From the NCBI GenBank assembly GCA_046714175.1, contig JBKKBI010000062.1:5344-69343 (forward strand): 64,000 nt of DNA, in the 5' to 3' direction. The notes beneath the pieces were generated by a model. It did no database searches. It was not told the origin of the DNA and saw only the letters and a program-made list of their open reading frames with translations. Position 1 is the first letter of the stretch; every line of letters starts with the position of its first letter. The translations under genes were made by a program, and so were the position numbers. Shown piece after piece: positions 4,341 through 34,181 of this stretch. Origin of the DNA: Acidimicrobiia bacterium (GTDB lineage Bacteria; Actinomycetota; Acidimicrobiia; Spongiisociales; UBA11373).

Positions 4341-5177
4341 TTACTCCCTCCACGACAGCGCTGGGCGGGCATTGAACAGCACTCCGGTGAACCCGGCCGC
4401 AGCCAGCAGGGCTGCCAGGATTCCCGGCGGTGTCAGCAACGGGTTGGGCCCGACGAATTTGACCCAACCGTCTCCCACGCAGTTCGGCTCCGGATACGAC
4501 TCCATCTCGGGCAACTCCTCGGCGCCCCATCCGTCCACCCAGGCACCCTTGGCCTGGATCAGGGCGGTGAACTGGAACGGAAGCAGGTCGCCGAAGTCGA
4601 CAGCCCCAGCATTGCGGTTCTTGTCCCGCGGGTTGGGGTCGCCGCCGTCGTCGCCGAACAGCCCTTCCGCCTTGATGAACCAGCGGTGATCATGGAAGGT
4701 CTCGGGAATGCTCGAGCCGAAATACACCAACACTCCGGCCGTGTCCACTTCCAGGGGATTGTCCCGGGTCAGCTTTTGATGGCCATAGATGTCGTAGGGC
4801 GGATCGTCGCCGCCCGTGTCGAACATGGCATCGATGGAGAGCCCAGAAGAGTCGTACGCGATGACGACGCCCTTGCACGGTCCGGTAAGGCTGGAGCCGG
4901 TGTCGCCAGGATCGAAGTCCCCCGAAACGGCCTCGAGGAACCCCTCCTCGGTCACCTCGCCGATGCGATCATCCCAGATTCCGGCAACCCCCTCCGGGGG
5001 TAACTCGCCGAGATCGGGAATCCCGTCGCCGTTACGGTCGGCAAAGTCGTCGCGGAACTGCTCGGGGATGAACTGCATCAGGTCTACGACCGGCTCTTCT
5101 TCCTGGGCGAAGGCCGGCGGCATCGCCACCAGCAGCACCACGCCCAGGGCGAGGAGTAGGTTGCGCTTTCGTCGCAT
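4341..5177 (-). CDS. Secreted protein with a Ca-binding-like DxNxDGxIxD motif and a C-terminal LTPPG + TM + basic-tail anchor (hypothetical)
   Basis: Signal peptide MRRKRNLLLALGVVLLVAMPPAFAQ. Motif DRNGDGIPDLGE. C-terminus LTPPGILAALLAAAGFTGVLFNARPALSWRE. Confidence 0.5.
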   Translation of the reverse strand: MRRKRNLLLALGVVLLVAMPPAFAQEEEPVVDLMQFIPEQFRDDFADRNGDGIPDLGELPPEGVAGIWDDRIGEVTEEGFLEAVSGDFDPGDTGSSLTGPCKGVVIAYDSSGLSIDAMFDTGGDDPPYDIYGHQKLTRDNPLEVDTAGVLVYFGSSIPETFHDHRWFIKAEGLFGDDGGDPNPRDKNRNAGAVDFGDLLPFQFTALIQAKGAWVDGWGAEELPEMESYPEPNCVGDGWVKFVGPNPLLTPPGILAALLAAAGFTGVLFNARPALSWRE

Positions 5178-6838: not shown

Positions 6839-7726
6839 TCAGTGGTCGGGAAACGGTGCGGCACGGGCCAGCATCGCAGGCGGGTGGTCGTGGCCGAGTT
6901 GGCCCGCGAGCCAAGTGCCGGTGGCCGCGGCGAGCGCCGGGTCGATTCCGGTCTCGATCCCCATTCCCCGCAGCAACGCCACGAGGTCTTCGGTGGCGAC
7001 ATTGCCTCCGGCTCCGGGGGAGAACGGCGACCCACCGTATCCGCCCACGGCGGCATCGAGGGAGGCGGCTCCTGATCTGACGGCGGCGACTGCGTTGGCG
7101 TATCCGGCATTGCGGGTGTTGTGAAAGTGGCATCGCACCGCAACTCCGGCGGCTGCGGCGACTGCGGGCACCAGCGACTCGACGCCGACGGGATTGGCCA
7201 CCCCGATGGTGTCGCCCAGGGCGATCTCGCCGGCCCCGGCGGCCGCGAACCCGGCGGCGAGCTCGACGACCCGCGCCATGGGTACCGCGCCCTCCACCGG
7301 GTCGCCGAATGCGACAGCAATCGTCACCGAAACCCGGCGTCCGGCTTCGCGGGCTCTGCCCACCATCGCCCGAACCTCCCGGTTGCGCTCATCGGCACCC
7401 TGCCCGGTGTTCTTCTCGGCGTATCCAGTGGATCCGTAGGCGACGAGGTTGATCTCATCGAGCTCGCATCCCAGTGCCCGATCCAGCCCTCGCTCGTTGA
7501 GCACGAGCCCGATCGACGAAAAAGCGCGGGACTGCAGCGCCGAACAGATGTCTTCGGCGCCGGCCATCTGTGGCACCCGGCGCGGATCCGCAAATGAGAC
7601 GGTCTCGATCCGTTTCCCACCGGCGCGCTCCATGCGGCGGATCAGCTCGATCCGGGTGGCGACTGGAAGAACCGCGGACTCACCCTGCAGGCCGTCGCGC
7701 GGTCCGACCTCGACGATCTCGATCAG
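6839..7726 (-). CDS. Hydroxymethylglutaryl-CoA lyase-like (HMGL family) protein; start codon unresolved
   Basis: ETVSFADPRRVPQMAG...CHFHNTRNAGYANAVAAV matches the HMGL-like family. The conserved N-terminal KSLIEIVEVGPRDGLQ is encoded in frame upstream of the first ATG (7633). No ATG/GTG/TTG precedes it. The 7726 boundary is nominal (CTG overlapping the hppD stop). Confidence 0.65.
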   Translation of the reverse strand: MIEIVEVGPRDGLQGESAVLPVATRIELIRRMERAGGKRIETVSFADPRRVPQMAGAEDICSALQSRAFSSIGLVLNERGLDRALGCELDEINLVAYGSTGYAEKNTGQGADERNREVRAMVGRAREAGRRVSVTIAVAFGDPVEGAVPMARVVELAAGFAAAGAGEIALGDTIGVANPVGVESLVPAVAAAAGVAVRCHFHNTRNAGYANAVAAVRSGAASLDAAVGGYGGSPFSPGAGGNVATEDLVALLRGMGIETGIDPALAAATGTWLAGQLGHDHPPAMLARAAPFPDH

Positions 7727-8844
7727 AGATTTCCCCGCTTCTCCTGCTCCCGTTCGATCGCCTCGAACAGTGCCTTGAAGTTGCCTTTGCCGAAGCCGGT
7801 GGCGCCACGGCGTTCGATGAACTCGAAGAAAACCGTGGGGCGATCCTGGAGCATCCGGCTGAAGATTTGGAGAAGGTATCCCCCCTCATCCTGGTCGAGC
7901 AAGATCTGCAGGTCCTCCACCTTCTTGCGGTCCACCTTGATGTCGGGCATGCGGCGCCACACGTCCTCGTAGTACGCCGCGGGCACTGCCAGAGTGTCGA
8001 AGCCTCGGGAGCGGGTTTCGGTCACCGTTCCGAGAAGGTCGCCCGTGTGCATGGCGATGTGCTGCACTCCCGGTCCGCGATAGAACTGCAAGTACTCGTC
8101 GATCTGGGACCGCTTCAGTCCCTCGGCGGGCTCGTTGATGGGAAGCTTGATTATTCCGGCCCCATCCCACATCACCTTGGACATCAGCGCCGTGTACTTG
8201 GTGCTGATGGCGTCGTCGTCGAAATGCTTGAGCAGGGTGAAACCAAAGACCCGTTCGTAGAACTCGACCCAATAGTCCATCTTTCCCAGTTCGACGTTCG
8301 CCACGACGTGGTCGATGAACTGCAGCCCGATCGGTCTTGCGATGGTGTCTTCCCGCGGTTCGAACCCGGGCAGGTCGCCCTCTCTCTCGACGAACGAGTG
8401 GATCGTGTCGCCGTAGGCGTGGATCGCTGCGATCACGGCCTTGCCGCGGGCATCTTCCACCACGAAGGGCTTGGCGGCAGGGTCGGCGCCGCGCTCCAGC
8501 GCCACCTCGAAGGCGGCCTCGGCATCGGGGACGTGTAACGCAACGTCGTGCACGCCCGGGCCGTGGCGATGGACGTGCTCGGCGACGGGGTGGTCCGGAC
8601 CCATCGCCGCGGTGACGACGTACCGGATCCGGTCCTGTTCGAGGAGATACGAGGCGGTTTCCCGCGTACCGGTCTCAGGCCCGCGGTAGCCGATGATGCG
8701 AAACCCGAGAAGATGACGAAAGAATTGGGCCGTCTGAAAGGCGTTGCCCACCCACCACTCAAGGTGCGAGAAACCCTTGATGGGGAACGCGTCGCGGCTC
8801 GCCATCTGCTTGGCACGGTTCAGGGTGCCCTGGTCGATGGTCAT
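7723..8844 (-). CDS. hppD: 4-hydroxyphenylpyruvate dioxygenase
   Basis: MTIDQGTLNRAKQMASRDAFPIKGFSHLEWWVGNA ... QIFSRMLQDRPTVFFEFIERRG. Strong RBS aggaggaag immediately before the ATG at 8842-8844. Confidence 0.9.
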   Translation of the reverse strand: MTIDQGTLNRAKQMASRDAFPIKGFSHLEWWVGNAFQTAQFFRHLLGFRIIGYRGPETGTRETASYLLEQDRIRYVVTAAMGPDHPVAEHVHRHGPGVHDVALHVPDAEAAFEVALERGADPAAKPFVVEDARGKAVIAAIHAYGDTIHSFVEREGDLPGFEPREDTIARPIGLQFIDHVVANVELGKMDYWVEFYERVFGFTLLKHFDDDAISTKYTALMSKVMWDGAGIIKLPINEPAEGLKRSQIDEYLQFYRGPGVQHIAMHTGDLLGTVTETRSRGFDTLAVPAAYYEDVWRRMPDIKVDRKKVEDLQILLDQDEGGYLLQIFSRMLQDRPTVFFEFIERRGATGFGKGNFKALFEAIEREQEKRGNL

Positions 8845-8983
8845 GATGCTTCCTCCTGGGAGGAGGACATTGTGCCGCGTTTGGCGAGGGAGCGAGAGGA
8901 TGGCCGGCGGCGCCCAACCGGGGCCGCCCATCGCCCATCATCTACTGCCTCGTTGCCTCAGGCGCCGCCGTTAGCCTCCGACC

Positions 8984-9892
8984 ATGGCACTCGAGATCAC
9001 CCGCCGCGATGCCCGCCGCCAGGCACTGGCGGGGCTGATCGACTACGCCGGGTTGTTTCCGCCTTCCTCGCTGGACATGGGTTCTGCAGCGGCGGAGTAC
9101 CGCGCCGCTCGCCTCGGCCCGGAGGCGTGGCTGGTGGATCGATTCATCTGCCCCGCAGACCGCCTGGTGGAGTTGGCCCGGGTGCTGATCACCACCATGC
9201 GATCCGGAGAGCCGCCGTGGTCGCTCGTGGTCACCGCTGCCCCGGGCGACGCCACGGTCGTCGCGGACTTCTCGTCCGAGCTGGGCCGATCGGCGCGTAT
9301 CGACGCCGTCGAAGTTCGCCTCCCGGCGGGGGCGACGGCGTCGGAGGTGGGGGAGATCCTGAAGGCTTTCGATCGGATCGTCTACTTCGAGGTGCCGTGG
9401 CGGGACCCGGTCGCGGCGCGCCTGCAGCTGCTGGCGGAGGTTCGCCAAAAGACCGGGCGCAGTCTCGGCGCCAAGATCCGGTGCGGTGGGACCACCCCTG
9501 ATGCCTTTCCACCGGCAGCCGCGGTGGCCGCCTTTCTCGCCGAATGCGCCCGTCTCCGGCTGCCGGTCAAGGCCACCGCGGGATTGCATCACCCGTTGCG
9601 CCACACCGACCCCACCACCGGTTTCACCCACCACGGTTTCCTCAACCTTCTCGCTGCCGCTGCTCTCGCCAATAGCGGTGAGTCAACGGCTGAATTGGAG
9701 GCGGTCCTGGAGGAGACGCATGCTGCGGAGTTCTCTCTCGATTCGAGCGGGCTGGGGTGGCGCCACCACCGAGTCGGTGGCGAAGCGCTCGCCGCGCTGC
9801 GGCGTGAGCTGCTCGTCGGCTACGGATCGTGCTCCATCGCGGAACCGGCGGCTGACCTCATCGCCCTCGGAATCCTTCCGGTGCGGCCGTGA
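8984..9892 (+). CDS. Hypothetical protein (His-rich motif KATAGLHHPLRH), translationally coupled to fahA
   Basis: 302 aa with no family recognised. Its stop overlaps the fahA GTG start (GTGA at 9889-9892). Divergent from hppD. Confidence 0.5.
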   Translation: MALEITRRDARRQALAGLIDYAGLFPPSSLDMGSAAAEYRAARLGPEAWLVDRFICPADRLVELARVLITTMRSGEPPWSLVVTAAPGDATVVADFSSELGRSARIDAVEVRLPAGATASEVGEILKAFDRIVYFEVPWRDPVAARLQLLAEVRQKTGRSLGAKIRCGGTTPDAFPPAAAVAAFLAECARLRLPVKATAGLHHPLRHTDPTTGFTHHGFLNLLAAAALANSGESTAELEAVLEETHAAEFSLDSSGLGWRHHRVGGEALAALRRELLVGYGSCSIAEPAADLIALGILPVRP

Positions 9893-11088
9893 CCACGATC
9901 GCGATTCCCACGGGAAGCGACTTCCCCCTGGAGAACCTGCCCTACGGGGTGTTCGACCCGGGTGAGGGCCCTCGGCTCGGCGTGGCCATCGGCGATGCTG
10001 TCCTCGATCTGCGGGCCGCGGCGAGCCGCGGGCTCCTTCCCCACGCAGACGAGTTGTCGCAACCGACCCTGCATCCATTCCTCGCCCTCGGTCGGGGACC
10101 ATGGCAGGAAACCCGCGCCGCGCTGCAAGCACTGCTCACCTCGGATCGCGTTCCCGCCGGGTCGATGCGAAATCGGTCCGAGGTGCGCATGCTGCTCCCG
10201 GTCCACCCTGGCGACTACGTGGACTTCTACTCATCGCTCCACCATGCCACCAATCTGGGACGGCTCTTTCGTCCTGGCGATGATCCGCTTCATCCCAATT
10301 GGCGCCAGCTGCCGGTGGGTTATCACGGGCGTGCGGGGAGCGTGATCGTGTCGGGCACCCCGGTGCATCGACCCCGCGGTCCGGTAGGGCCGGGAACTGG
10401 AGCGGTGCCAACCGCGGCACTCGACTTCGAACTCGAAGTCGGTTTCATCACCGGACCCGGAAGGCCTCTCGGGCAGGCGATCGCCGCCGACGATGCCGCC
10501 GACCACATCTTCGGCTTCGTCCTGGTGAACGACTGGAGCGCCCGTGACATCCAGCGGTGGGAGTACGTGCCACTGGGACCATTCTTGGGCAAGTCGTTTG
10601 CCACCACGATCTCGCCATGGGTCGTGCCTCTGGAGGCGCTACGGCCCTATCTGGTTGCGGGTCCACCGCAGGACCCCACCCCGTCCGACTATTTGCGGAC
10701 CGCGGGAGACTGGGGCCTCGACCTCACACTCGAAGTGGCGTTGCGGCCGGCTGGCGGACGCGAGCGGTCGATCACCCAGGTGGACTTTGCCTCCATGTAC
10801 TGGACGATCGCGCAGCAGTTGGCCCATGCGACCGTCAACGGGGCCCGGGTCCGCCCCGGCGACCTGTTCGCCTCCGGCACCGTATCCGGAGCCGATCCGG
10901 GCAGTTGGGGCAGCCTGATCGAGATCACCCGCAACGGAGCGGAGCCGCTCGAGTTGAGCGACGGCAGCACGCGCACCTTTCTCGAGGACGGAGACACCGT
11001 GGTCATCAGGGGCTGGGCCGAGCGCCCCGGCCTGCCGCGGATCGGATTCGGCGAGTGCGTGGGGACGGTCCTATCGGCCCTTGGCTGA
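9889..11088 (+). CDS. fahA: Fumarylacetoacetate hydrolase (fumarylacetoacetase)
   Basis: PYGVFDP...VGYHGRAGSVIVSGTPVHRP...FGFVLVNDWSARDIQRWEYVPLGPFLGKSF matches the FAH family. Confidence 0.85.
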   Translation: MTTIAIPTGSDFPLENLPYGVFDPGEGPRLGVAIGDAVLDLRAAASRGLLPHADELSQPTLHPFLALGRGPWQETRAALQALLTSDRVPAGSMRNRSEVRMLLPVHPGDYVDFYSSLHHATNLGRLFRPGDDPLHPNWRQLPVGYHGRAGSVIVSGTPVHRPRGPVGPGTGAVPTAALDFELEVGFITGPGRPLGQAIAADDAADHIFGFVLVNDWSARDIQRWEYVPLGPFLGKSFATTISPWVVPLEALRPYLVAGPPQDPTPSDYLRTAGDWGLDLTLEVALRPAGGRERSITQVDFASMYWTIAQQLAHATVNGARVRPGDLFASGTVSGADPGSWGSLIEITRNGAEPLELSDGSTRTFLEDGDTVVIRGWAERPGLPRIGFGECVGTVLSALG

Positions 11089-11193: not shown

Positions 11194-12174
11194 ATGGCTC
11201 GGGTTCGTCTCTTCGCCAACCTGCGGGAGCTTGCCGGCACGGCTTCGGTCGAGATCGACGGCGCGACTGTGGCCGAGATTCTCAGCGCCGCCACCGATCG
11301 TTATGGCGCCGACTTCGCCCGGGCACTGCAAACCGCCCAGGTGTGGGTCGATGGGGAACGGGTCACCCGCGAGGCCCCCGTCCCGCATGGGTCCGAGTTG
11401 GCGGTGATCCCTCCCGTCTCCGGCGGGTCGCTGGTGGTTCAGTCCCCGATCGGCCTCGAGATCGCGCTGGTGCTCGCGACCTTCGGGATCCTGTTCCTGG
11501 GCAACGCCCTTTCGCTGGAGTGGTTCACGGTGCTGGTCGTGCTGGTCGCATCCGTGTGGGTGTTGGACATCACCGGGTCCACCGACCGTCGCGGCCTTCC
11601 TCTGGCCAATGCGGTGATCATGCTCACTGTGGGCGCTGGCGCGCTCGCCACCTACCGCTTCGGTGTGGTTGGGATGGCGGCCACCGCCGGTACCGCCGTG
11701 GTCGGAGTACTGGTGGCATCGGTGTTCCGTTCCCTGCTCCGCCCAATCGACTCATTCGCGGCCGGGGCCGTTCTGGCGATCGTCACCGCCATCGGCACCT
11801 CTGCGATGGTTCTCTTGCGCCTGCGGTCGCGCGACGAGACCATGGTGTTCCTCTTCGTGCTCAGCGTGGCGGTGGTGGTCTCCTGGTTTTCGGATCGCGC
11901 CGAGATGCCCATCATCGACCCGCTGGTCGCCCTGCTGGTGGGGGCGGTGCTTGCCGGGGCAGTCGGTGGGGCGTTGTGGGCTCCCGACCTTCTCAGCGCC
12001 ATCGGAGCCGCGGTGGCCGCAGCGATTGCGCTGGTGTCAGGCCGCAACCTCGGCACCCTGCTCCGCGCTGGAGGCTTCTTCACCCAGGGCACCATTCCGG
12101 GGAGCCTCGCCTACTTTGATGGTGCCTTGCTCGCCGCCGCCGCCTTCTGGTCGATCCTGACGGTGCTCAGTTAG
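11194..12174 (+). CDS. MoaD/ThiS-like beta-grasp domain (ends ...IPPVSGG) fused in frame to a polytopic membrane domain
   Basis: MARVRLFANLRELAGTASVEIDGATVAEILSAATDRYGADFARALQTAQVWVDGERVTREAPVPHGSELAVIPPVSGG is followed directly by about 250 aa of hydrophobic helices. Confidence 0.55.
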   Translation: MARVRLFANLRELAGTASVEIDGATVAEILSAATDRYGADFARALQTAQVWVDGERVTREAPVPHGSELAVIPPVSGGSLVVQSPIGLEIALVLATFGILFLGNALSLEWFTVLVVLVASVWVLDITGSTDRRGLPLANAVIMLTVGAGALATYRFGVVGMAATAGTAVVGVLVASVFRSLLRPIDSFAAGAVLAIVTAIGTSAMVLLRLRSRDETMVFLFVLSVAVVVSWFSDRAEMPIIDPLVALLVGAVLAGAVGGALWAPDLLSAIGAAVAAAIALVSGRNLGTLLRAGGFFTQGTIPGSLAYFDGALLAAAAFWSILTVLS

Positions 12175-12257: not shown

Positions 12258-12276
12258 CTGACGGCGCTGCCGTCAG
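12258..12276. terminator. Hairpin CTGACGGC-gct-GCCGTCAG at the convergent gene ends
   Basis: Perfect 8-bp inverted repeat overlapping the aminotransferase stop codon. Confidence 0.3.
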
Positions 12277-13352
12277 AGCAGCCCGCGGAGCGCCACGATC
12301 AAGCCCTCGTTCTCCTGGGGCGACCCGGCGGTGATGCGCACCCAGCCCAGGGGCGGAACCGGGCGCACTATGTATCCCTTTTCCAGGAGGCCGTGCACCA
12401 TCGCGGCGGCGGCATCCCCAAATCGGGTGTAGACAAAGTTGGTCTGGGTGTCGATGACGGTGAGGCCGAGGTCGCGCAGCGTAGCGGTGAGGTGGGTCAC
12501 GGCGAGGGTGTTGCGGCGCACCCGTTCGGAAACCCGATCCTGATGTCGCAACGCCTCGACGGCGGCCACCTCGCCGAGAGTATTGACCGTGAAGGGCAGC
12601 TGCAGGCGGCGGAAGTTGGCGATCGACTCCTGCGCTGTGACCGCGTATCCGATCCGAAGCCCAGCGAGTCCGTAGGCCTTGGAGAAGGTACGGGTGACCA
12701 TCACGTTGTCGCGTGTGGCGGCGAGCGGAAGCATGGTGCGAAAGTCGGGTGCGGTGGCGAACTCGGCGTATGCCTCATCGATCACCACCAGGATGTCCTC
12801 GCGGAGGGAGTCCACGAAGTCTTCTAAGTCATCACCGGGGACGTGAGTGCCAGTGGGATTGTTCGGGTTGCACACGAACACCACGCTCGTGTCGGGTCGC
12901 ACCGCCTGGCGCATCGCGCCCAGGTCATGGCGATGGCGGCCGTCGAGTGGCACGGCGATGTCCGTGCCGAAGCCGGTGCGGGTGGCGATCTGATACAGGG
13001 AGAACGAGGGCCAGCTGTAGACCGCGCTGCTGGCGGGGTGGGTGACCGCGAGCGCGGCCACAAGGGTCAATTCGTTGCTCGCCCCTCCGCACCAGACGCG
13101 GTCGGTCGGCACCCCATAGAACTCCGACAGCGCCCGGGTGAGATCAGGTCGGCTGTTGTCCGGATAGCGATTGAGCCCGGCGGCCGCGGCGGCGATCGCC
13201 GCCTGTACCTCGGGAGCGGGAGGCTCCGGGCTCTCATTCGAGGCGAGCTTCACCACTTGTTGCAGCCGAAAGGTGGCGAGCACCTCGGCAATGGCGCGTC
13301 CCGGCCGATATGCCTCGATCCGGTCGATGTCAGGACGGAAGCGGATGGGCAT
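12273..13352 (-). CDS. Class II aminotransferase (histidinol-phosphate / aromatic aminotransferase family)
   Basis: KLASNESP, CNPNNPTG, TFSKAYGLAGLRIGY (the PLP-binding lysine motif). Confidence 0.8.
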   Translation of the reverse strand: MPIRFRPDIDRIEAYRPGRAIAEVLATFRLQQVVKLASNESPEPPAPEVQAAIAAAAAGLNRYPDNSRPDLTRALSEFYGVPTDRVWCGGASNELTLVAALAVTHPASSAVYSWPSFSLYQIATRTGFGTDIAVPLDGRHRHDLGAMRQAVRPDTSVVFVCNPNNPTGTHVPGDDLEDFVDSLREDILVVIDEAYAEFATAPDFRTMLPLAATRDNVMVTRTFSKAYGLAGLRIGYAVTAQESIANFRRLQLPFTVNTLGEVAAVEALRHQDRVSERVRRNTLAVTHLTATLRDLGLTVIDTQTNFVYTRFGDAAAAMVHGLLEKGYIVRPVPPLGWVRITAGSPQENEGLIVALRGLL

Positions 13353-13528: not shown

Positions 13529-14704
13529 ATGATGACCACCAGACATACGATGCTCCTCGTGAGCTCGTGGCGACGACGCGCTGTGGCGCTCGTCCTCATC
13601 ACTGTCGCCGCCCTCGCCCAGAGTGGTGGAATCCCGGCCTACTCGGTGGATGAGGAGGACGTCGAGCAGGCGCGTCAGGAGCGCGAACAGGCTGCCCGGG
13701 AGCGGGCCGCCGCCCTCGCGGACCTCGACTCCGCCGTCGCCGCCTATGAGGCGCTCAATGCCGAACTCCAGGAGCTGACGTTTCGTGTCGGCCGTCTCCG
13801 GTCCCAAATCGACCTCTACGAGTCGCAAAGCCGCGATCTGCGCGACGAGATTCGCACCCAAGCCGTTGACTCCTACATGCATGGTGACGAGCGCGATGGT
13901 CTTAGTGCAGTCTTCAATCCGGAGGTGGTGCAGCAGTCGATCATCGCCCGGGAGGTGCTGGCTCTGGCGATCGATAGTGACTCGGCCTCCCTGGACTCAC
14001 TCCTGGCGGTCACGGCGGAGATGGACCGTCTTCAGGAGTCCTTGCGCACCGACAGCGCTCGGGTCGAGGAACTCCGGGTCGAGGCCGATGCCGTCGTCGC
14101 CCGGATGGACGAGCTGTTCGCGCAAGCCGACGCAGAGTTCAACCAGGCCCAGTCGGAGTTCGTTGCTGCCTCCGCGGCGCTTGCCGAGCAGCGGCGCCGG
14201 GAGGAGGAGGAGCGCCAGCGTCGCGAAGCCGAGCAGCGGGTGCGGGACCTGATCCGGGCGTCCCTGGGTGCGCCCTCCCTGGGGGTGCCGATGTCGATCA
14301 CTCCCGGCGTCATCTGTCCGGTCGCCGCTCCGACCTTTTTCATCAATTCGTGGGGGTTTCCTCGTTCCGGTGGGCGCGTCCACCTCGGTACCGACATGTT
14401 CGCCGCATACCGCGCACCCCTGGTCGCCGTGGGCGATGGGGTGGTCCGGTTGTCCACCTCGAGTCTCGGCGGCATCGTCGTCCACTTGTGGGCCGACCAC
14501 GGAGTCGATTACTTCTATGCGCATCTCGATGCCTACGCCCCCGGTCTCACCAGTGGGCAGCGGGTCACCAGGGGCCAGTTGCTCGGCTACAACGGCGACA
14601 CTGGGAATGCCGCTTCCGGGGCCTATCACTTGCACTTCGGAATGCGTCCGGGTAACACCATCAACGTGAACCCGTATCCGACGGTGCGGGCGGTCTGCCC
14701 GTGA
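13529..14704 (+). CDS. Secreted M23-family peptidase with an N-terminal coiled-coil region
   Basis: Signal peptide, a long coiled-coil, and C-terminal HLGTDMFAAYRAPLVAVGDGVV ... GYNGDTGNAASGAYHLHFG (LytM/M23 motifs). Confidence 0.8.
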   Translation: MMTTRHTMLLVSSWRRRAVALVLITVAALAQSGGIPAYSVDEEDVEQARQEREQAARERAAALADLDSAVAAYEALNAELQELTFRVGRLRSQIDLYESQSRDLRDEIRTQAVDSYMHGDERDGLSAVFNPEVVQQSIIAREVLALAIDSDSASLDSLLAVTAEMDRLQESLRTDSARVEELRVEADAVVARMDELFAQADAEFNQAQSEFVAASAALAEQRRREEEERQRREAEQRVRDLIRASLGAPSLGVPMSITPGVICPVAAPTFFINSWGFPRSGGRVHLGTDMFAAYRAPLVAVGDGVVRLSTSSLGGIVVHLWADHGVDYFYAHLDAYAPGLTSGQRVTRGQLLGYNGDTGNAASGAYHLHFGMRPGNTINVNPYPTVRAVCP

Positions 14705-14734: not shown

Positions 14735-15280
14735 GTGACCGAGACCAAGCGCCGCCGCATCGACCAGATCCAGGATCCTGAGTTCCTGCGCAACCTGGCC
14801 ACGATCACCCAGGACGAACTCCGGGACCGTCGCAGTATGTGCGACGACCTCGACCTGGAGTTCTCCTATTACCGCAGGCTGCTTCACGGCCGCATGGATC
14901 TGTTGGCGTTCGAGATGCGGCGCCGCGCCGGCGAGGAAGAGCAGACCCTCCTCGAGGCGCTTCCGAAGATCCTGGCGGCCGGGGCCTACAACTCCGATCC
15001 CGGACTGCCGAGCAGGAACATTCCGATCGAGGCTCCCGATGTGCCCTCCCCGGGTCGTCGCCTCATCGACCGGGCCCTGCAGGGCGACTTCCTGGCTCGC
15101 CTCGGCGACCTGACCGATGACGACCTCCGGGAGACGCATCGCTTCCTGGAGCAGATGGAGGTCGAGGTCTCGATGCAGCGTCGTGTGGTCCACACCGTCC
15201 TCGATCGATTGCAGGCGGAGGTGACCCGGCGGTACCGGGATGGTTTGGCCGATCCCGGTGAGCTGCTGGCCCGCGGGTGA
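14735..15280 (+). CDS. Hypothetical helical protein; possible RsiG-like c-di-GMP-binding anti-sigma factor
   Basis: Two helices carry DxxxSxxRxxxHxxxD (DLEFSYYRRLLHGRMD) and ExxxSxxRxxxHxxxD (EVEVSMQRRVVHTVLD). These resemble the RsiG E(x)3S(x)2R(x)3Q(x)3D repeats. GTG start. Confidence 0.35.
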   Translation: MTETKRRRIDQIQDPEFLRNLATITQDELRDRRSMCDDLDLEFSYYRRLLHGRMDLLAFEMRRRAGEEEQTLLEALPKILAAGAYNSDPGLPSRNIPIEAPDVPSPGRRLIDRALQGDFLARLGDLTDDDLRETHRFLEQMEVEVSMQRRVVHTVLDRLQAEVTRRYRDGLADPGELLARG

Positions 15281-16215
15281 TCGTCGGTTCGATCCGTAGC
15301 GGTCTGGTCGAGACCGTGCATCCCGTCGCCGTGGCCGTCGTCGATCCGGATGGAGCGGTCTTGGTCACTTCTGGTGACGCCTCGGATCGGGACTTCTTTC
15401 TCCGCTCCGCAATCAAGCCCCTTCAGGCCGCGGTATCGCAACGGCTGGGAGCGGCACTGGGCCTGGAACAACTCGCGGTGGCGGCATCGAGCCATGAGGG
15501 TCAGCCGGCGCACATCGCCATCGTCGAGCAGATGCTGCTCGAGGTCGGCCTGGAAGCGGGGAACCTGCGCTGCCCACCCGATTGGCCGGGCGACGCGGAC
15601 TCCGAGCGGCGATGGGTGGCGATGGGCCGGGACCACCAGGAGGCGGTGTTTCACAACTGCTCAGGCAAGCACGCTGCCATGCTCCGAGCCTGCGCGGCCC
15701 GGGGCTGGTCCCTCGAGTATCTCGCCGCCGACCATCCGCTGCAGAAGGAGGTGCTGGTCGCAGTGGAGGCTGCGACTGGCCGGACGGTGGGACCGACCGG
15801 AGTGGACGGATGTGGTGCGCCGACGCTGCGCAGCGATGTCGTCGGACTCGCCCGGGGATTCGCCGCCATCGCCGCGGACCCGGACCTGGCCGAGGTGCGC
15901 TCGGCAGCGATGCGCTTTGCCTCGCTGACCCGGGATGGCGATCGCCCCGAGACCGAGATCGCCCGCTGGCTCCCCACTGTCGTCAAGGGTGGGGCGGCGG
16001 GATGCATCGGGATCGCCTGGCCGGAAGGCGGCCTCGGTATCGCTGCCAAGTGCTGGACGGGTGACGGGGCCGCCGCGGTGGTCGGCGCCATCACGGTGAT
16101 GACCGAGTTGGGAATCGTTCCGGATCATCCGCGGGCTCAGCTGGAGGCGGTGGCGCATCCCCCGGTTCTGGGGGGCGGCAAGCCGGTCGGGCATCTTGCG
16201 GTGATCGAACGATGA
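15277..16215 (+). CDS. Asparaginase_II-family (PF06089-like) protein
   Basis: RSGLVETVHPVAVAVVDPDG...FFLRSAIKPLQAA; start overlaps the upstream stop (GTGA). Confidence 0.55.
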   Translation: MIVGSIRSGLVETVHPVAVAVVDPDGAVLVTSGDASDRDFFLRSAIKPLQAAVSQRLGAALGLEQLAVAASSHEGQPAHIAIVEQMLLEVGLEAGNLRCPPDWPGDADSERRWVAMGRDHQEAVFHNCSGKHAAMLRACAARGWSLEYLAADHPLQKEVLVAVEAATGRTVGPTGVDGCGAPTLRSDVVGLARGFAAIAADPDLAEVRSAAMRFASLTRDGDRPETEIARWLPTVVKGGAAGCIGIAWPEGGLGIAAKCWTGDGAAAVVGAITVMTELGIVPDHPRAQLEAVAHPPVLGGGKPVGHLAVIER

Positions 16216-17099
16216 ACCCTTGGGCCGATTGGTCGGGGCTGCAGGCCCTGGCCGGCGGCACCGGACCGTTCCCGTACCGCGGATTCCTGGAGTCTTGGTG
16301 GCGTCACCGGGGCCGAGGCGAGTTACTCACTCTCCGCGCCGGCGACGGGGCGGTGGGGCTGGTGGTCGATGCGGGTGTGGTCCGGTTCGTCGGGGAGGCG
16401 GACCTCACCGACTACCACTCTCCTCTCGGTGACGACCTGGAGCCGGTGGTGGCGGCGCTGGTCTCTGCCCTGGCCGCGGGCACCGTCCTGGCGCTGGACT
16501 CGCTGCCCATGGAAGCGGCCGAGCCTTTGATGAAACAATTCGCCGCCGCCGGCGTTGCTATGTCGATGAGTTCCCACGACGCCACGATGGTGCTGGACCT
16601 CCCCCGTGACCCCAACGCATATCTGGCGCTTCTCGACGCCAAACAGCGCCACGAACTGCGCCGCAAGCGTCGTCGCTTCGAGGAGCAAGCCGGGATCCCG
16701 AGCCTGGTCAGATATGACAACGCCCTGGAGGGTTTTGCTGCCATGCACCGCACCGCCACCGGAGAAAAGGGCGAGTTCATGACGCCCGACATGGAATCGT
16801 TCTTCGGCTCGCTGGTCACCGACGCCGGTGGGGTCATCGACCTGTTGCTCGATGGGTCGGGCAATCCGGCGGCGGCGGCATTCGGTTTCGAGGACGCCGA
16901 CACCTACTACCTGTACAACTCTGCGTTCGCGGCGGAACGAGCGCCGCTGTCGCCTGGGATCGTGCTCGTGGCGGAGTTGATCGCGGCGACCATCCGCTCC
17001 GGTCGGCGGCGTTTCGACTTCCTCAAAGGCGGAGAGGACTACAAGGTCCGCCTCGGAGCCCGACCCAGGCCGCTGTATCGGCTGGAGGGGGCGTTGTGA
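16212..17099 (+). CDS. GNAT/FemAB-like acyltransferase (Acetyltransf_6 / CelD-like)
   Basis: C-terminal ...YYLYNSAFAAERAPLSPGIVLVAELIAATIRSGRRRFDFLKGGEDYK matches BioF2/FemAB-like GNATs. 4-bp overlaps with both neighbours. Confidence 0.55.
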   Translation: MNPWADWSGLQALAGGTGPFPYRGFLESWWRHRGRGELLTLRAGDGAVGLVVDAGVVRFVGEADLTDYHSPLGDDLEPVVAALVSALAAGTVLALDSLPMEAAEPLMKQFAAAGVAMSMSSHDATMVLDLPRDPNAYLALLDAKQRHELRRKRRRFEEQAGIPSLVRYDNALEGFAAMHRTATGEKGEFMTPDMESFFGSLVTDAGGVIDLLLDGSGNPAAAAFGFEDADTYYLYNSAFAAERAPLSPGIVLVAELIAATIRSGRRRFDFLKGGEDYKVRLGARPRPLYRLEGAL

Positions 17100-18280
17100 T
17101 CTCCCGGGTGGCGTTTCTCAGCATCCATTCCTCGCCGCTCGACGCCCCCGGCGTCGGGGACGCCGGAGGCATGAACGTGTACATCGATGCCCTGGCCCGC
17201 ACCCTGGCAGGACGCGACATTCAGGTGGACGTGTTCACTCGTCGGGCCTCCGACGCGATCCCCGCCGAAGTCGAGGTGGTGCCCGGCTACTGCGTGATTC
17301 ATATCGATGCGGCCGGCAGCGACACCGCCGACATGGTGGGGGCCTTCTCCGAAGGCGTCGCCAAATGGTTGGCGGCGCGCCAGGCGACTCCCGATCTGGT
17401 CCACAGTCATTACTGGCTGTCGGGTTGGGCGGGGGCGCATCTGCAGCAGGTTCTTGGAGTGCCTTTGGCGATCTCGTTCCACACGCTGGGGCGGGTGAAG
17501 GAGGCGACGCGGGCACCAGGTGAGCCCCGGGAGTCACTGGTGCGCATTGCGGCCGAAACCGAGGTGGTGGCTCGCGCCGGGTGCATGATCGCTTCTACCC
17601 CGGCCGAGGCTGCCGACCTGATCGAGCACTACCAGGCGAACCCGGAGCGCATCTGCGTCTCGCCTCCCGGGGTGGATCACAGCGTCTTTCGACCCGGCGA
17701 CAAGGACCGGGCGCGACGGCGCCTGGGTCTGGATCCCGGTCCGCTGGTGGCCATCGTCGGGAGGATCCAGCCCCTCAAGGGGATCGATGTAGCTATCGCC
17801 GCCGTTGCCGCTCTGCCCGGGGTACGACTCCTCGTGGTCGGTGGTCCGAGTGGGCCCATGGGTGAGTCCGAATTGGTGCGCCTCCACGCTCTCGCCGAAC
17901 AGACCGCTCCGGGGAGGGTGACTTTCATGCCGCCCCGCCCCCACGGCGATATCGCCTGCGTGTATCGCGCGGCCGACGCAGTCATCGTTCCCAGCCGGTC
18001 GGAGTCGTTCGGGTTGGTGGCCGTCGAGGCTCAGGCGTGTGGCATCCCGGTGGTGGCGTCGCGAGTCGGAGGGTTGGCGTACTCGGTCGAGGACGACCGC
18101 ACCGGGTATCTGGTCGCTGGCCACGATCCCGCCGACTACGCCCGGGCGCTCGCTGCGATCCTCGATGATGCCGACAACGCCGCCCGATTGTCCGCCGGCG
18201 CCATCGCCCACGCCGCCGGATTCTCGTGGGACGCGACCGCGGATCGACTGGTGGAGTTGTACCGCGGGTTGCTCGAGTAG
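17096..18280 (+). CDS. mshA: D-inositol-3-phosphate glycosyltransferase (mycothiol biosynthesis)
   Basis: SIHSSPLDAPGVGDAGGMNVYI is the hallmark MshA motif. GT4 C-terminal domain EAQACGIPVVASRVGGL. Confidence 0.85.
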   Translation: MISRVAFLSIHSSPLDAPGVGDAGGMNVYIDALARTLAGRDIQVDVFTRRASDAIPAEVEVVPGYCVIHIDAAGSDTADMVGAFSEGVAKWLAARQATPDLVHSHYWLSGWAGAHLQQVLGVPLAISFHTLGRVKEATRAPGEPRESLVRIAAETEVVARAGCMIASTPAEAADLIEHYQANPERICVSPPGVDHSVFRPGDKDRARRRLGLDPGPLVAIVGRIQPLKGIDVAIAAVAALPGVRLLVVGGPSGPMGESELVRLHALAEQTAPGRVTFMPPRPHGDIACVYRAADAVIVPSRSESFGLVAVEAQACGIPVVASRVGGLAYSVEDDRTGYLVAGHDPADYARALAAILDDADNAARLSAGAIAHAAGFSWDATADRLVELYRGLLE

Positions 18281-26993: not shown

Positions 26994-27100
26994 CGATGGC
27001 TCCTCCCGGGTATCGATCGCCGGCTCGTCCTCGCCGCGCGACACGACCCCGTAGCCGAACCTCTAACCTCCGACCGGTTCGCGCACGAAGGGATCGGGGA

Positions 27101-28996
27101 GTGGCTTCGGCAGCAGGCAACAACGGGGGGCATGGCAACCCGTCGCGGCTGGCCGGGCTCACCATTCGCCTCTCCTTCCTGATCGCTGCCGCCTTTCTCC
27201 TCGTCGGGCTGGCCCTTGCCGGAGTCGCCGCTGCCCAGCTGGTCTCTCCGGACCTGGTTTCGGGCAACGCGATGCTCTCTTACGGGCGGGTCTTTCCCGC
27301 CGGCACCGCCGCACTCCTCTTCGGCTGGCTGACAGTGGCGTTCGTCGGTGTGTCGTTCCACGCCGTTCCCCGGCTGGTGGGTTCCCACCTGGCGATGCCG
27401 CTCTTTGCGTTCGGTGCCCTCGGTCTCATCGCCGGTGGCGCCGCTGCCGGCGTTGCGATGATCCTCCTGGGAGAAAACGTCGGCGGGCGTTGGCTCGAGT
27501 TCCCGCTCTTCGTCGATGGCGCTCTTGTGGCCGGATATGCCGCGGTCGCCGGCGTGCTCGTGATGACGTGTCGTCGCGGTACCCGAGAAGGCATTCCGCT
27601 TCCCGCTTGGTACCTGGTGGCGGGTTCGGTCTGGCTGCTCTTCGCCCAAGCGGCGGGGGCGATCCCTGGATTGGAGGGACTCGCCGGTGAGGTCCAGTCC
27701 GCCTTCACCGGTGCTGCCCTGTTCGGCATGTGGGCGGCCACCGCCGGCGTCGGGGTGGCCTACACCGTCGCTGCCGGAGCAATCGGTGAGGTGCGGTTCA
27801 ACGAACGGTTGGGGCGGATCGGCTTCTGGTCCCTGGCGTTCATGTGGGTGTGGACCACCGCCCGGGTGCTCCAGTTCGGACCGACCAAGGATTGGATCGA
27901 GACGGTCCCGGTGGTGTTCGGGGCGGGACTGGTGGTCGCGGTACTCGCGATCGCGACCGACTTCGCCGGGGCACTGCGCGGCCGGTGGTCGGCGGTAGCC
28001 GCTTCGCCGCCATTGCAGATGGTCGTTGCTGGTCTCGGCTTCCTCGTGATAGCGGTTGCGACCGCATTTGTCGGAACCATGCGTTCGGGGTCGGCGGTGC
28101 TCCGCTTCACCGCCTGGGACTCCGGCGTCGAGGCCGCGGCGCTCCTGGGCGCGTTCACCCTGTTCGCCCTGGCGGGTATCGCGGCGACGGCGCCGGCGTT
28201 GCGCGGCCGCACCTGGGGAGTCTGGTCGGGCCGAGGGGTGTTGTGGCCGGTGGTGGTGGGCGCCGGGGTTGCGGTGGGCTCGCGATTGATGGCCGGGGTG
28301 CAGCAGGGGCTGTCGTGGCTTGCCGGCGTGCAGACGGGTGAGTATCAGAATTTCGGGGATGGGTTCGGTCGTTCGCTCGCGCCACTGGCCGGTCTCGACG
28401 GCGCCTACCTGGTGGGTGTTGGCCTGATCGCCCTTGGCGCGGTCGGCTTTGCGCTACGCGTCCTGTGGTTGAGCATCGGCGCAAGCCATGGCCACTCGCA
28501 GCCGGTGGTCGGTTTCATCACTCAGCCACTCAGGTCGTTGCTGCGTGGTGCGGTGGCGGTCTTCGCGCTCGGCGCGTTGGGTGCCTTCGCCTTCCCCGCG
28601 GTCGACTCGCGGCCATCGGCTTCTGTGCTGGCGGAGACCACCCGCAACTTTGCCGCCAACCCGGTGGCGGAGTTGGGGCGGGAGGTCTATGTCCGCGAGG
28701 GGTGCTGGTATTGCCACACCCAGCAGGTGCGCCAGGTACGCACCGATCTCGGACTGGGACCGGTTTCGCAGCCGGGCGACTACGCCTACGACCCCGCCGG
28801 TGTCGCCGGGTGGCGGCGCATCGGCCCCGATCTGATGCACACGGGGAGTCGCAACGACACCGCGAGTGCCGCCTGGGTGCGGAACCACCTGACCGATCCG
28901 CGCGCCGAGCATGCATGGTCGGTGATGCCGTCGTTCGAGTATCTCAGTAACGAGGAACTGACGGCGCTGTCGGTCTACGTTTCGGGATTGGAGTGA
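27101..28996 (+). CDS. Polytopic membrane protein (about 12 TM, lacks heme-copper His ligands) fused to a C-terminal CcoO/FixO-like monoheme cytochrome c domain
   Basis: C-terminal ELGREVYVREGCWYCHTQQVR is a CcoO-like CxxCH. The N-terminal 470 aa are hydrophobic with few His. GTG at 27101 (RBS ggggag) was chosen. The track start at 26996 overlaps the divergent gene. Confidence 0.55.
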   Translation: MASAAGNNGGHGNPSRLAGLTIRLSFLIAAAFLLVGLALAGVAAAQLVSPDLVSGNAMLSYGRVFPAGTAALLFGWLTVAFVGVSFHAVPRLVGSHLAMPLFAFGALGLIAGGAAAGVAMILLGENVGGRWLEFPLFVDGALVAGYAAVAGVLVMTCRRGTREGIPLPAWYLVAGSVWLLFAQAAGAIPGLEGLAGEVQSAFTGAALFGMWAATAGVGVAYTVAAGAIGEVRFNERLGRIGFWSLAFMWVWTTARVLQFGPTKDWIETVPVVFGAGLVVAVLAIATDFAGALRGRWSAVAASPPLQMVVAGLGFLVIAVATAFVGTMRSGSAVLRFTAWDSGVEAAALLGAFTLFALAGIAATAPALRGRTWGVWSGRGVLWPVVVGAGVAVGSRLMAGVQQGLSWLAGVQTGEYQNFGDGFGRSLAPLAGLDGAYLVGVGLIALGAVGFALRVLWLSIGASHGHSQPVVGFITQPLRSLLRGAVAVFALGALGAFAFPAVDSRPSASVLAETTRNFAANPVAELGREVYVREGCWYCHTQQVRQVRTDLGLGPVSQPGDYAYDPAGVAGWRRIGPDLMHTGSRNDTASAAWVRNHLTDPRAEHAWSVMPSFEYLSNEELTALSVYVSGLE

Positions 28997-29958
28997 CCAT
29001 GGACGAACTGCTCGCTGCAGCGGCCAAAGCCACCGGGATGTCGGAGAACATGGTCAAGCGGTCCGCTACGGCTCGAGCCAAGGCGCAGGGAACCACGGTG
29101 GAAGCAGTGCTGGCGGAGTGGGCCGGCGTGCCGGTGCCCGCAGCAGCCGCGTCCGCCCCGGCGGCGACCGAGCCGGCGGCGGAGGCTGCGGCTGCGGAGA
29201 CCGCTATCCCCGCCGAGGTCGCGGCCCCCGCTGCGGAGACCGCGGCCCCCACCGAGGTTGCTGAGTCGGAACCCGCCGAGGTTGCTGAGACGGAACCCGC
29301 CTCGGATCTCGAGATCGAAGAGAGCGGGGAAGAGGTCGCGCCGACACCGGCCGCGCCAGCACCTGTGGCCGCGGTGCGCGAGGTGGTGCCGTCGGGTGCC
29401 ATCCCGCGCTGGCTGGCCGGCCTATTCGTCGCGGTGCCGCTATTTGCGCTCACCTATCTCGCCTTCGTTCCCAACGGACCCGCTTGTGGTGATGCCGGTT
29501 CGCTGGCCGTCGACCCTGTCACCGGCGAGATGGTCAATTGCGACGGCACCGCCATCGGCGGCGAGGGGGAGACCGACTATTTCGCTCTTGGCCTCGAGGT
29601 GTATGGAAGCAGTGGCTGCATCGCATGCCACGGCGAGGGTGGCGCCGGAGCCGGCGACTTCCCCGCCTTTACCGAAGGGGCGCTGCTGGCGACCTTCCCC
29701 GAAGGATCCTGTTCCACCCATATCGAGTGGATTCGATTGGGCACTGCGCAATGGCCCGAGCCGACCTACGGCGCCAACAACAAGCCCGTTGGTGGTTCAG
29801 GAGCGGTGATGCCGACCTTTGGCTCGCAGCTCAGCGACGAGGAGGTGAAGGCGGTCGCCCTGTACGAGCGTGTCGCCTTCGGCGGCCAGAGCCTGGAGGC
29901 GGCCATGCTCGATTGCGTCGGAGCCCCGACCGAAGCCGAGGCGGCGGCAGAGGGATAA
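28993..29958 (+). CDS. Membrane-anchored monoheme cytochrome c with an N-terminal module shared with the subunit-IV-like protein
   Basis: CIACHGEGG and VMPTF in the cytochrome c domain. One TM helix. N-terminal KRSATARAKAQGTTVEAVLAEWAG. Confidence 0.7.
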   Translation: MTMDELLAAAAKATGMSENMVKRSATARAKAQGTTVEAVLAEWAGVPVPAAAASAPAATEPAAEAAAAETAIPAEVAAPAAETAAPTEVAESEPAEVAETEPASDLEIEESGEEVAPTPAAPAPVAAVREVVPSGAIPRWLAGLFVAVPLFALTYLAFVPNGPACGDAGSLAVDPVTGEMVNCDGTAIGGEGETDYFALGLEVYGSSGCIACHGEGGAGAGDFPAFTEGALLATFPEGSCSTHIEWIRLGTAQWPEPTYGANNKPVGGSGAVMPTFGSQLSDEEVKAVALYERVAFGGQSLEAAMLDCVGAPTEAEAAAEG

Positions 29959-34067: not shown

Positions 34068-34181
34068 ATCTCGGGCAAGGCTAGACCACACCATTGTGAA
34101 CCCCGTGTCCTCAGGTAACAATCGCAACACCCCCCGGCGCCAGGGTGTCGTTCAAGGATGTACCAAGATTCTGTCGCAGGG

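Follow-up and report, generated by a model that had tools for sequence, protein, structure and literature searches.

A MoaD-type beta-grasp domain joined through a conserved Gly-Gly tail to a CdsA-like membrane domain in uncultured Acidimicrobiia

Background

A stretch of 64,000 nucleotides from an Acidimicrobiia bacterium (GenBank assembly GCA_046714175.1, contig JBKKBI010000062.1, positions 5,344 to 69,343 of the forward strand; hereafter the window) contains an open reading frame (ORF) that begins as a sulfur carrier of the MoaD/ThiS family and continues as a polytopic membrane protein. MoaD/ThiS carriers are prokaryotic relatives of ubiquitin, and in a canonical MoaD the Gly-Gly (GG) tail is the free C-terminus. 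The locus raises the question of whether such a fusion is a real protein and, if it is, what a carrier tail does in the middle of a polypeptide. The parts of the fusion, in window coordinates, are as follows.

11194..12174, + strand: whole fusion ORF, ATG start, 326 amino acids and a stop; MoaD-type beta-grasp, linker and membrane domain of predicted CdsA fold
11194..11409, + strand: beta-grasp core of the MoaD type, residues 1-72 (AlphaFold2 model and family alignment)
11410..11427, + strand: tail PPVSGG, residues 73-78
11428..11448, + strand: hypervariable linker SLVVQSP, residues 79-85 (from identity, entropy and model confidence)
11449..12171, + strand: nine-helix membrane domain, predicted CdsA fold with a cytoplasmic N-terminus, residues 86-326 (AlphaFold2 model)

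Results

The fusion is a real and conserved gene

The first-pass annotation, made from the letters of the window, had described a MoaD/ThiS beta-grasp of residues 1-77 ending in GG, a reading frame running on without a stop into about 250 residues of membrane helices, and, as one option, a frameshift or merged gene pair. The domain and its GG stand, with the boundary shifted by one residue (the GG is residues 77-78 and the domain 1-78). The read-through holds as well: past the GG the frame runs on without a stop for 248 mostly hydrophobic residues, which form nine helices in an AlphaFold2 model run on a 25-sequence alignment (predicted local distance difference test, pLDDT, 86-88). That a lost stop codon or an indel joined a moaD gene to a downstream membrane gene is hardly credible. 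Split versions do exist in a few contigs, but the uninterrupted ORF recurs in independent assemblies and in the protein, species and membrane-profile searches described below, and the coding signature is uniform along it. Its third-position G+C (GC3) is 0.83, as in the neighbouring genes of a window with 66.7% G+C.

The identical protein is encoded on contigs of two other sequencing runs (SRR31159442 and SRR31159441), which are independent assemblies; this and the conservation of the fusion rule out a frameshift or merged genes. Among 5.8 billion proteins, a word-indexed search identified 129 homologues that cover 98-100% of the query at identities down to 35%. Barring a few longer gene calls they are 326-336 amino acids long, and the named ones are labelled as Acidimicrobiia or Actinomycetota metagenome-assembled genomes (MAGs). 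When one genome per GTDB species was scanned, the uninterrupted fusion was found in at least 37 species representatives, all of them MAGs. Looked for in other genomes, as the first-pass annotation had proposed, the fusion is found in more than 100 homologue clusters, which reach down to about 30% identity and are all of Acidimicrobiia-type MAGs, and in at least 37 species. Complete or near-complete genomes that carry it include CP070681.1, OZ243930.1 and OZ241390.1, along with the contigs CAVQVN010000009.1 and CAWBVU010000006.1. A few of these representatives bear other phylum labels, probably through binning or labelling errors. The MAGs labelled Acidobacteriota, Verrucomicrobiales or Armatimonadetes that carry the fusion are at loci L012, L024, L025, L029, L030, L034 and L044; most of them also keep the Acidimicrobiia-type downstream M23/RsiG block described below, and taxonomic mislabelling or bin contamination is the probable source of their labels.

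A hidden Markov model profile built from the membrane part only and searched against 1.84 billion cluster representatives matched just 110 proteins. Nearly all of these belong to the fusion family, together with one weak match to a genuine actinobacterial CdsA (E 6e-4), and no bridging family appeared. In all 50 family representatives of at least 300 amino acids the membrane domain begins at about residue 79-108, behind a PPV[SA]GG tail. The fusion family is narrow and nearly all of its members have the fused form; the two-module protein is real and is conserved among uncultured Acidimicrobiia.

The beta-grasp domain is of the MoaD type

The Pfam ThiS model (PF02597) matches residues 4-78 over its entire length (positions 1-76 of 76) with an E value of 3.6e-12 and 47 bits, against a cutoff of 22.5. 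In NCBIfam, these residues are likewise matched by the models for moaD, archaeal MoaD and SAMP1. The fused domain keeps the canonical MoaD positions F7, R11, E12, G15, an N53-like residue, E68 and the tail, while R5, L6, F7, A8, L10, R11, A14, G15, G38, F41, W51, G54 and E68 are invariant across the family. The mean net charge of the beta-grasp in the family is -5 and it has no signal peptide. On the moaD equivalog model TIGR01682 the excised beta-grasp scores 52.8 bits, below the cutoff of 66.15; the MoaDs of Acidimicrobiales that lie inside moaA-moaD-moaC operons score 37-43 bits, and since these genuine operon MoaDs score even lower than the fusion, the cutoff is uninformative in this class. 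The closest stand-alone MoaDs among the matches listed (L045-L050, from Acidimicrobiales-labelled MAGs and one unclassified bin) are 46-54% identical to the fused domain. As judged from these sequence comparisons the fused beta-grasp is of bona fide MoaD type; the protein belongs to the MoaD/ThiS family by this domain, but is not a demonstrable molybdenum cofactor (Moco) MoaD.

An invariant tail beside a hypervariable linker

At the junction the sequence reads ...AVIPPVSGG and then SLVVQSP..., and the semi-tryptic C-terminal peptide of the beta-grasp that ends at Gly78 is ...EAPVPHGSELAVIPPVSGG. In an alignment of 61 family sequences, mean pairwise identity is 54% in the beta-grasp (residues 1-72), rises to 99% in PPVSGG (residues 73-78), falls to 18% in the linker (residues 79-88, with an entropy of about 3 bits per column) and is 34% in the membrane domain (residues 89-326). 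The 50 full-length representatives, every one of which has PPV[SA]GG, are an unbiased sample for this motif, the MoaD part having played no role in their retrieval by the membrane-domain-only profile. For the comparison sets of stand-alone MoaDs and of MoaD-MoaE, retrieval used patterns containing IPPVS, which makes a conserved tail there a product of the selection. The residue following the GG (position P1') is A, S, T, G or V in 54 of the 61 sequences. In the AlphaFold2 model residues 75-84 are disordered (pLDDT <50), and the predicted template modelling score (pTM) is 0.86 for the membrane domain alone and 0.71 for the full-length protein; the drop in pTM and the disordered linker would fit a flexible, accessible junction.

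In the polypeptide as encoded the GG is not C-terminal, 248 residues lying beyond it, and the free C-terminus that goes with PF02597 is absent. Perfect conservation of the tail beside a hypervariable linker, in a MoaD that looks to be in working order, would otherwise be hard to explain, which argues that the tail is still used. Because every known use of a GG tail needs a free carboxylate, cleavage after Gly78 is favoured. We tentatively propose that the fusion is a precursor which would be cut after Gly78 in the manner of MoaX, the MoaD-MoaE fusion of Mycobacterium tuberculosis, to free a MoaD-type carrier beside its membrane partner; sequence conservation and analogy point this way, and we consider it quite possible.

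Split variants

In one lineage (L094-L096; four contigs from three runs) the two modules are separate genes. A 78-amino-acid gene of the ThiS family ends ...ILPPVSGG-stop, and is followed by a 200-bp spacer, a 264-amino-acid membrane gene, and genes for an M23 peptidase, an Acetyltransf_6 protein and a GT4 glycosyltransferase. Orthologues with a stop after the GG, which the first-pass annotation had named as a sign of two genes, are thus real, but they are a minority form and the window's fusion stands. By the logic of gene fusion and fission the MoaD and membrane modules are functional partners, and the split orthologue that ends in GG-stop shows that the system tolerates a GG with a free end. 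At a further locus (L097), 4 nt separate the GGDR-stop-stop end of the MoaD gene from the start of the membrane gene, which is in another frame; this is a single contig and an indel is possible. P0125, which had looked like a stand-alone membrane protein, was rejected as a gene call truncated at a contig edge, and P0122, which starts right after the position of the GG, is probably truncated in the same way.

The membrane domain is CdsA-like

The model places the beta-grasp at residues 1-72 and the nine helices at residues 86-325. Seven positions of the membrane domain are invariant (W122, G160, R183, G283, R291, G303 and D309) and five more are nearly so at 95-98% (V116, D125, D242, G293 and A314). 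Those of most interest for a comparison with CdsA are these.

11740..11742, + strand: Arg183, invariant, in the cytoplasmic loop between helices 4 and 5 (from conservation)
11917..11922, + strand: Asp242-Pro243, invariant or nearly invariant, in the cytoplasmic loop before helix 7, at the position of the CdsA 'SPGK'
12040..12066, + strand: G283-x3-G287-x3-R291, end of helix 8, in register with the CdsA 'GDLTESMFK'
12118..12123, + strand: Asp309-Gly310, with an invariant Asp where the AlphaFold2 model shows a break in the helix; corresponds to Asp246 of CdsA or to its Asp249-Gly250 kink

The CdsA enzyme TmCdsA has nine helices, a cytoplasmic N-terminus and a funnel that faces the cytoplasm; its Mg/K centre is held by an Asp219-Asp249 dyad, helix 9 kinks at Gly250, and Asp144, Lys167, Glu222, Lys226 and Asp246 are accessory residues (PMC4083444). 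In the hhalign/hmmsearch register, which is a sequence register and not a superposition of coordinates, the P302-G303...D309-G310 segment of the family aligns on P-G-H-G-G-I-L-D-R-I-D of Escherichia coli CdsA, and the position of Lys226 is occupied by Arg291, so that the positive charge is kept. Besides this equivalent of Lys226, only one Asp of the Asp246/Asp249 pair is retained (Asp309), and nothing in the family matches Asp144 or the lysine of SPGK. The predicted cytoplasmic loops carry 7.4 Lys and Arg per protein vs 2.2 for those outside, averaged over the family, a positive-inside count that supports a cytoplasmic beta-grasp. All four charged residues counted as invariant (R183, D242, R291 and D309) fall on the predicted cytoplasmic side.

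When 25 family members were compared with Pfam and NCBIfam, no match to the membrane domain was obtained at E values up to 10, by which rhomboid and the other known membrane families were set aside. The membrane domain is CdsA-like in fold and topology, with nine transmembrane (TM) helices and a cytoplasmic N-terminus. It shares these features with CdsA and CarS, the cytidylyltransferases for phosphatidate and archaetidate (CTP_transf_1, PF01148), and differs from them in having no Pfam, NCBIfam or PDB sequence match, in not conserving Asp219, Glu222, Asp144 and the SPGK lysine, in bearing a ubiquitin-like domain (Ubl), and in a context of cell envelope and M23 genes rather than phospholipid synthesis. 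On its catalytic positions and its sequence matches, then, the fusion protein is not a CDP-diacylglycerol synthase.

Gene neighbourhood

The genes downstream of the fusion in the window are listed below.

12273-13352, - strand: aminotransferase, between the fusion and M23 genes
13529..14704, + strand: M23 peptidase with a signal/anchor segment, a coiled coil and intact HxxxD and HxH motifs (Pfam, translation)
14735-15280, + strand: RsiG-like protein, conserved downstream block
15277-16215, + strand: asparaginase II, conserved downstream block
16212-17099, + strand: FemAB-like Acetyltransf_6 protein, conserved downstream block
17096-18280, + strand: GT4 glycosyltransferase, conserved downstream block

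Clustering the neighbours of 36 loci gave a stable order of fusion, M23, RsiG-like, asparaginase II, FemAB-like Acetyltransf_6 and GT4; the upstream side of the fusion gene varies among loci. No neighbour is better conserved than the M23 gene, which occurs in 27 loci and mostly follows the fusion gene directly on its strand, across gaps of 20-200 bp; it also lies downstream of the split and MoaD-less versions. NCBIfam relates the M23 protein of the window to peptidoglycan DD-endopeptidases. Co-transcription of the fusion and M23 genes is not obligatory, because the opposite-strand aminotransferase gene intervenes in the window. A scan for promoters and terminators around the fusion gene found nothing. 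Pfam analysis of about 40 window genes showed tyrosine catabolism upstream of the fusion and a cell-envelope block downstream, followed by cytochrome and Nuo genes.

Fusion loci were examined to about 10 kb on either side of each match. With E. coli seeds, tblastn found none of moaA, moaB, moaC, moaE, moeA and moeB in the 64-kb window or at any fusion locus. The same search did find Moco genes beside the stand-alone MoaDs L045, L048, L050, L052, L057 and L059, all of which lie directly downstream of moaA, with moaC following in four; at L045 the order is moaE, moeA, moaA, moaD, moaC. The fusion locus is part of a cell-envelope block and not of a sulfur or Moco block. What survives of the first-pass annotation as a whole is a GG-bearing carrier domain joined to a polytopic membrane domain; its artefact option does not, and it had recognised neither the CdsA fold nor this cell-envelope setting.

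Two further observations concern genes of this neighbourhood. In most of the Acidimicrobiia loci examined, the gene after M23 encodes an RsiG-like anti-sigma factor (PF22802; for example at 14735-15280, + strand, in the window, at 12214-12750 in L005 and at 2372-2911 in L097). The arrangement suggests that in Acidimicrobiia a cell-wall hydrolase is linked, in a conserved manner, to a WhiG-type sigma switch. The end of a MaoC-like dehydratase gene overlaps the start of the fusion gene, or of the stand-alone membrane gene, by 1-4 nt in several relatives (L003, 8573-9400 / 9400-10380; the P0042 contig; L090, 1-393 / 390-1190), which suggests translational coupling. The window has no MaoC-like gene there; a fumarylacetoacetase gene lies 105 bp upstream of the fusion gene instead.

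Discussion

How the tail might be used

The nearest precedents for processing at a GG junction are fusions of MoaD with MoaE. MoaX of M. tuberculosis becomes active only once an unidentified protease has cut the bond from Gly82 to Ser83 (PMC4326299), and in Deinococcus a JAMM enzyme is reported to cleave the organism's own MoaD-MoaE (PMC8832034). The Acidimicrobiia protein has in common with MoaX and with the MoaD-MoaE of Deinococcus radiodurans an N-terminal MoaD-type beta-grasp, a GG at the junction and a partner that follows directly in one ORF, and with MoaX also the phylum and a small P1' residue. A MoaD-type domain with GG joined directly to a downstream domain, one of the marks of the MoaX type, is what we find here. 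It differs in that their partner is MoaE, whereas here the partner is a nine-TM domain of CdsA fold, the context is not that of Moco, and cleavage is proposed from the sequence.

If the polypeptide were cut after Gly78, as MoaX and the Deinococcus fusion are, a MoaD-type carrier with a Gly-Gly carboxylate would be freed at the membrane, next to its partner. The freed tail would then be activated by an E1-like enzyme encoded elsewhere and would work within, or at, the cytoplasmic funnel that the CdsA-like domain forms. By analogy with MoaD-MoaE and ThiS-ThiG, the domain to which the carrier is fused would receive the tail, as an enzyme or a receptor. In CdsA the funnel has a further, lateral opening to the lipid of the membrane. 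The substrate would be an envelope precursor embedded in the membrane and probably linked to a lipid.

Single-ORF MoaD-MoaE fusions of about 206 amino acids, with PPVSGG followed by A/S/G-F-..., are widespread in MAGs of Thermoleophilia, Gaiellales and other Actinomycetota (L051, L054, L055, L058, L061, L063-L065, L067, L071, L073, L076-L079, L081, L082 and L084). GG-directed processing of MoaD fusions is probably common in Actinomycetota.

Several results weigh against processing after Gly78 and use of the tail by the membrane domain. The JAMM protease and E1 partners whose search the first-pass annotation had proposed did not turn up: a regular-expression scan of the window and about 45 related loci found no JAMM-motif protein in a plausible coding frame, and there is no MoeB/ThiF-like E1 in the same set. 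In this the fusion differs from CysO/Mec+ and QbsE/QbsD, in which a ThiS/MoaD-family carrier likewise has its GG masked by downstream residues, but where the extension is one or a few residues and the JAMM gene is adjacent; here it is a conserved membrane protein of 248 amino acids. Three lineages (L090, L091 and L099) have the membrane gene and M23 without an adjacent MoaD, so the membrane protein is not strictly dependent on the carrier; their lone membrane genes keep D242-P243, R291 and D309. The core of the system is the membrane protein with M23, and the MoaD module is accessory. The order of the M23 block may itself be inherited synteny and not a functional link, and in the window an opposite-strand gene separates the fusion from M23. 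The resemblance to CdsA is marginal at the sequence level: an hhalign comparison with the E. coli enzyme is in register with a non-significant E value of 0.18, and the membrane-domain profile has no match among PDB sequences. Foldseek against the PDB returned MoaD-type matches for the beta-grasp and did not return CdsA. The position of CdsA Asp219 is R, I, T or K in the family and that of Glu222 is an invariant Gly, and with this incomplete dyad the membrane domain may be no enzyme at all.

Alternative readings

The beta-grasp might instead be permanently tethered as a cytoplasmic adaptor or regulatory module, comparable to the YukD-like domain of EccD, with the GG an inherited feature of the linker. 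In its favour, the fused form predominates and is stable across more than 100 clusters, neither a protease nor an E1 was found nearby, fusions of a Ubl with a membrane protein are known in Actinobacteria (PMC1779556), and Foldseek weakly recalls the EccD3 architecture (6sgx_C, with a Foldseek probability of 0.5). The likeness to EccD extends to an actinobacterial N-terminal cytoplasmic beta-grasp ahead of a multi-helix membrane domain (PMC1779556) and to this weak whole-chain resemblance. The YukD beta-grasp, however, has no GG and is not conjugated, the EccD membrane fold is another one of 11-12 TM helices, and the context is ESX secretion; the fusion protein has neither a YukD-type beta-grasp nor the EccD fold, and no ESX genes lie near it. 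A functionless linker should drift, yet PPVSGG is invariant and the next ten residues are near-maximally variable. The split orthologue stops exactly after the GG, and the domain scores as MoaD with all the canonical MoaD hallmarks, whereas the Ubls of YukD and EccD lack a GG tail (PMC1779556). We regard permanent tethering as somewhat less likely than cleavage, but as a rival to be taken seriously.

Cleavage could also take place with no chemistry between the carrier and the membrane domain, if the fused domain were the cell's ordinary Moco MoaD, cut off to serve MoaE elsewhere, and the N-terminal fusion an expression device like ubiquitin on ribosomal proteins. MoaX and the D. radiodurans MoaD-MoaE are precedents for the cleavage, the closest kin are the operon MoaDs of the class, which the fused domain at least equals in its moaD-model scores, and among the best 80 of 216 matches no contig or assembly has both the fusion and a stand-alone MoaD. 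After fission, on the other hand, the MoaD gene stays beside the membrane gene and not with Moco genes; moaA, moaC, moaE and moeA are absent within 10 kb of any fusion and from the window, and the stand-alone MoaDs of Acidimicrobiales and Acidimicrobiaceae that were examined sit in a moaA(-moaC) context instead. This makes an ordinary Moco MoaD unlikely.

A candidate protease is close at hand in the M23 peptidase, the most conserved neighbour, with intact catalytic motifs. M23 enzymes of the lysostaphin/LasA type have Gly-Gly specificity. The P1' residue after the GG is mostly Ala, Ser or Gly, and the acidic beta-grasp (net charge -5) does not forbid export of the N-terminal tail. For M23 to cut there, the beta-grasp would have to be on the outer side of the cytoplasmic membrane, and this is where the idea, attractive on specificity, is disfavoured on topology. 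The N-terminus of CdsA is cytoplasmic (PMC4083444), the positive-inside count of 7.4 vs 2.2 favours N-in, the M23 protein has a signal peptide and the beta-grasp none, and NCBIfam ties the window's M23 to enzymes that act on peptidoglycan. We hold this cleavage to be very improbable.

If the carrier is released after Gly78, as we tentatively favour, a more specific outcome can be imagined in which the Ubl acts on the membrane itself, its tail being released, activated by an E1 and then used by the CdsA-fold domain. The CdsA fold normally joins a nucleotide to a lipid phosphate. By extension the Ubl might be conjugated to a lipid or polyprenyl-phosphate head group, in a manner like that of Atg8 and phosphatidylethanolamine, or sulfur might be delivered to a lipid-linked precursor of the cell envelope. 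We mention this as a long shot; if true, it would be a reaction class not known from bacteria.

Other features of the window

Upstream of the fusion, an ORF of 302 amino acids (8984-9892, + strand) has no Pfam, NCBIfam or PDB sequence match. It sits between a divergent 4-hydroxyphenylpyruvate dioxygenase gene (7723-8931, - strand) and the fumarylacetoacetase gene (9889-11088, + strand), the start of which overlaps its stop by 4 nt, and on the P0042 contig a similar family-less gene precedes fumarylacetoacetase; it may encode an unrecognised step of the homogentisate pathway. Further downstream, a single ORF of 666 amino acids (26996-28996, + strand) combines a COX1 domain (haem-copper oxidase subunit I) with a FixO domain (cbb3 mono-haem subunit) and is followed by a dihaem cytochrome c gene (28993-29958). 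Two other ORFs with a good coding signature, of 277 amino acids (4341-5177, - strand) and 533 amino acids (32526-34130, - strand), have no Pfam or NCBIfam match.

Conclusions

MoaD fusions that are cleaved at GG, CdsA/CarS enzymes and EccD were already known; what is new is the fusion of a Ubl/sulfur carrier with an unannotated membrane partner, and in the literature we found no description of a MoaD-CdsA-like fusion. Public annotations call the protein 'MoaD/ThiS family protein' or 'molybdopterin synthase sulfur carrier subunit'. These labels cover the first quarter of the protein only, and gene context lends no support to the Moco-specific one. This is an unexpected pairing that can readily be tested, in a family that is confined to uncultured Acidimicrobiia and whose function we infer.

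The fusion partners of MoaD/ThiS have so far pointed to the enzymes that are served, namely MoaE, ThiG and sulfite reductase. Here the partner has the predicted fold of a lipid-nucleotide enzyme, belongs to a family outside all Pfam models and is encoded in a cell-envelope gene block. Should the beta-grasp stay attached for good, it would join that of EccD as a second Ubl built permanently into the cytoplasmic side of a polytopic membrane protein, and the perfect conservation of an activation tail would be the point needing explanation. If the tail is freed, Actinomycetota would have, with MoaX, two independent examples of a MoaD fusion processed at its GG, and if the tail is then used, Ubl/sulfur-carrier chemistry would be linked to membrane or cell-wall precursors.

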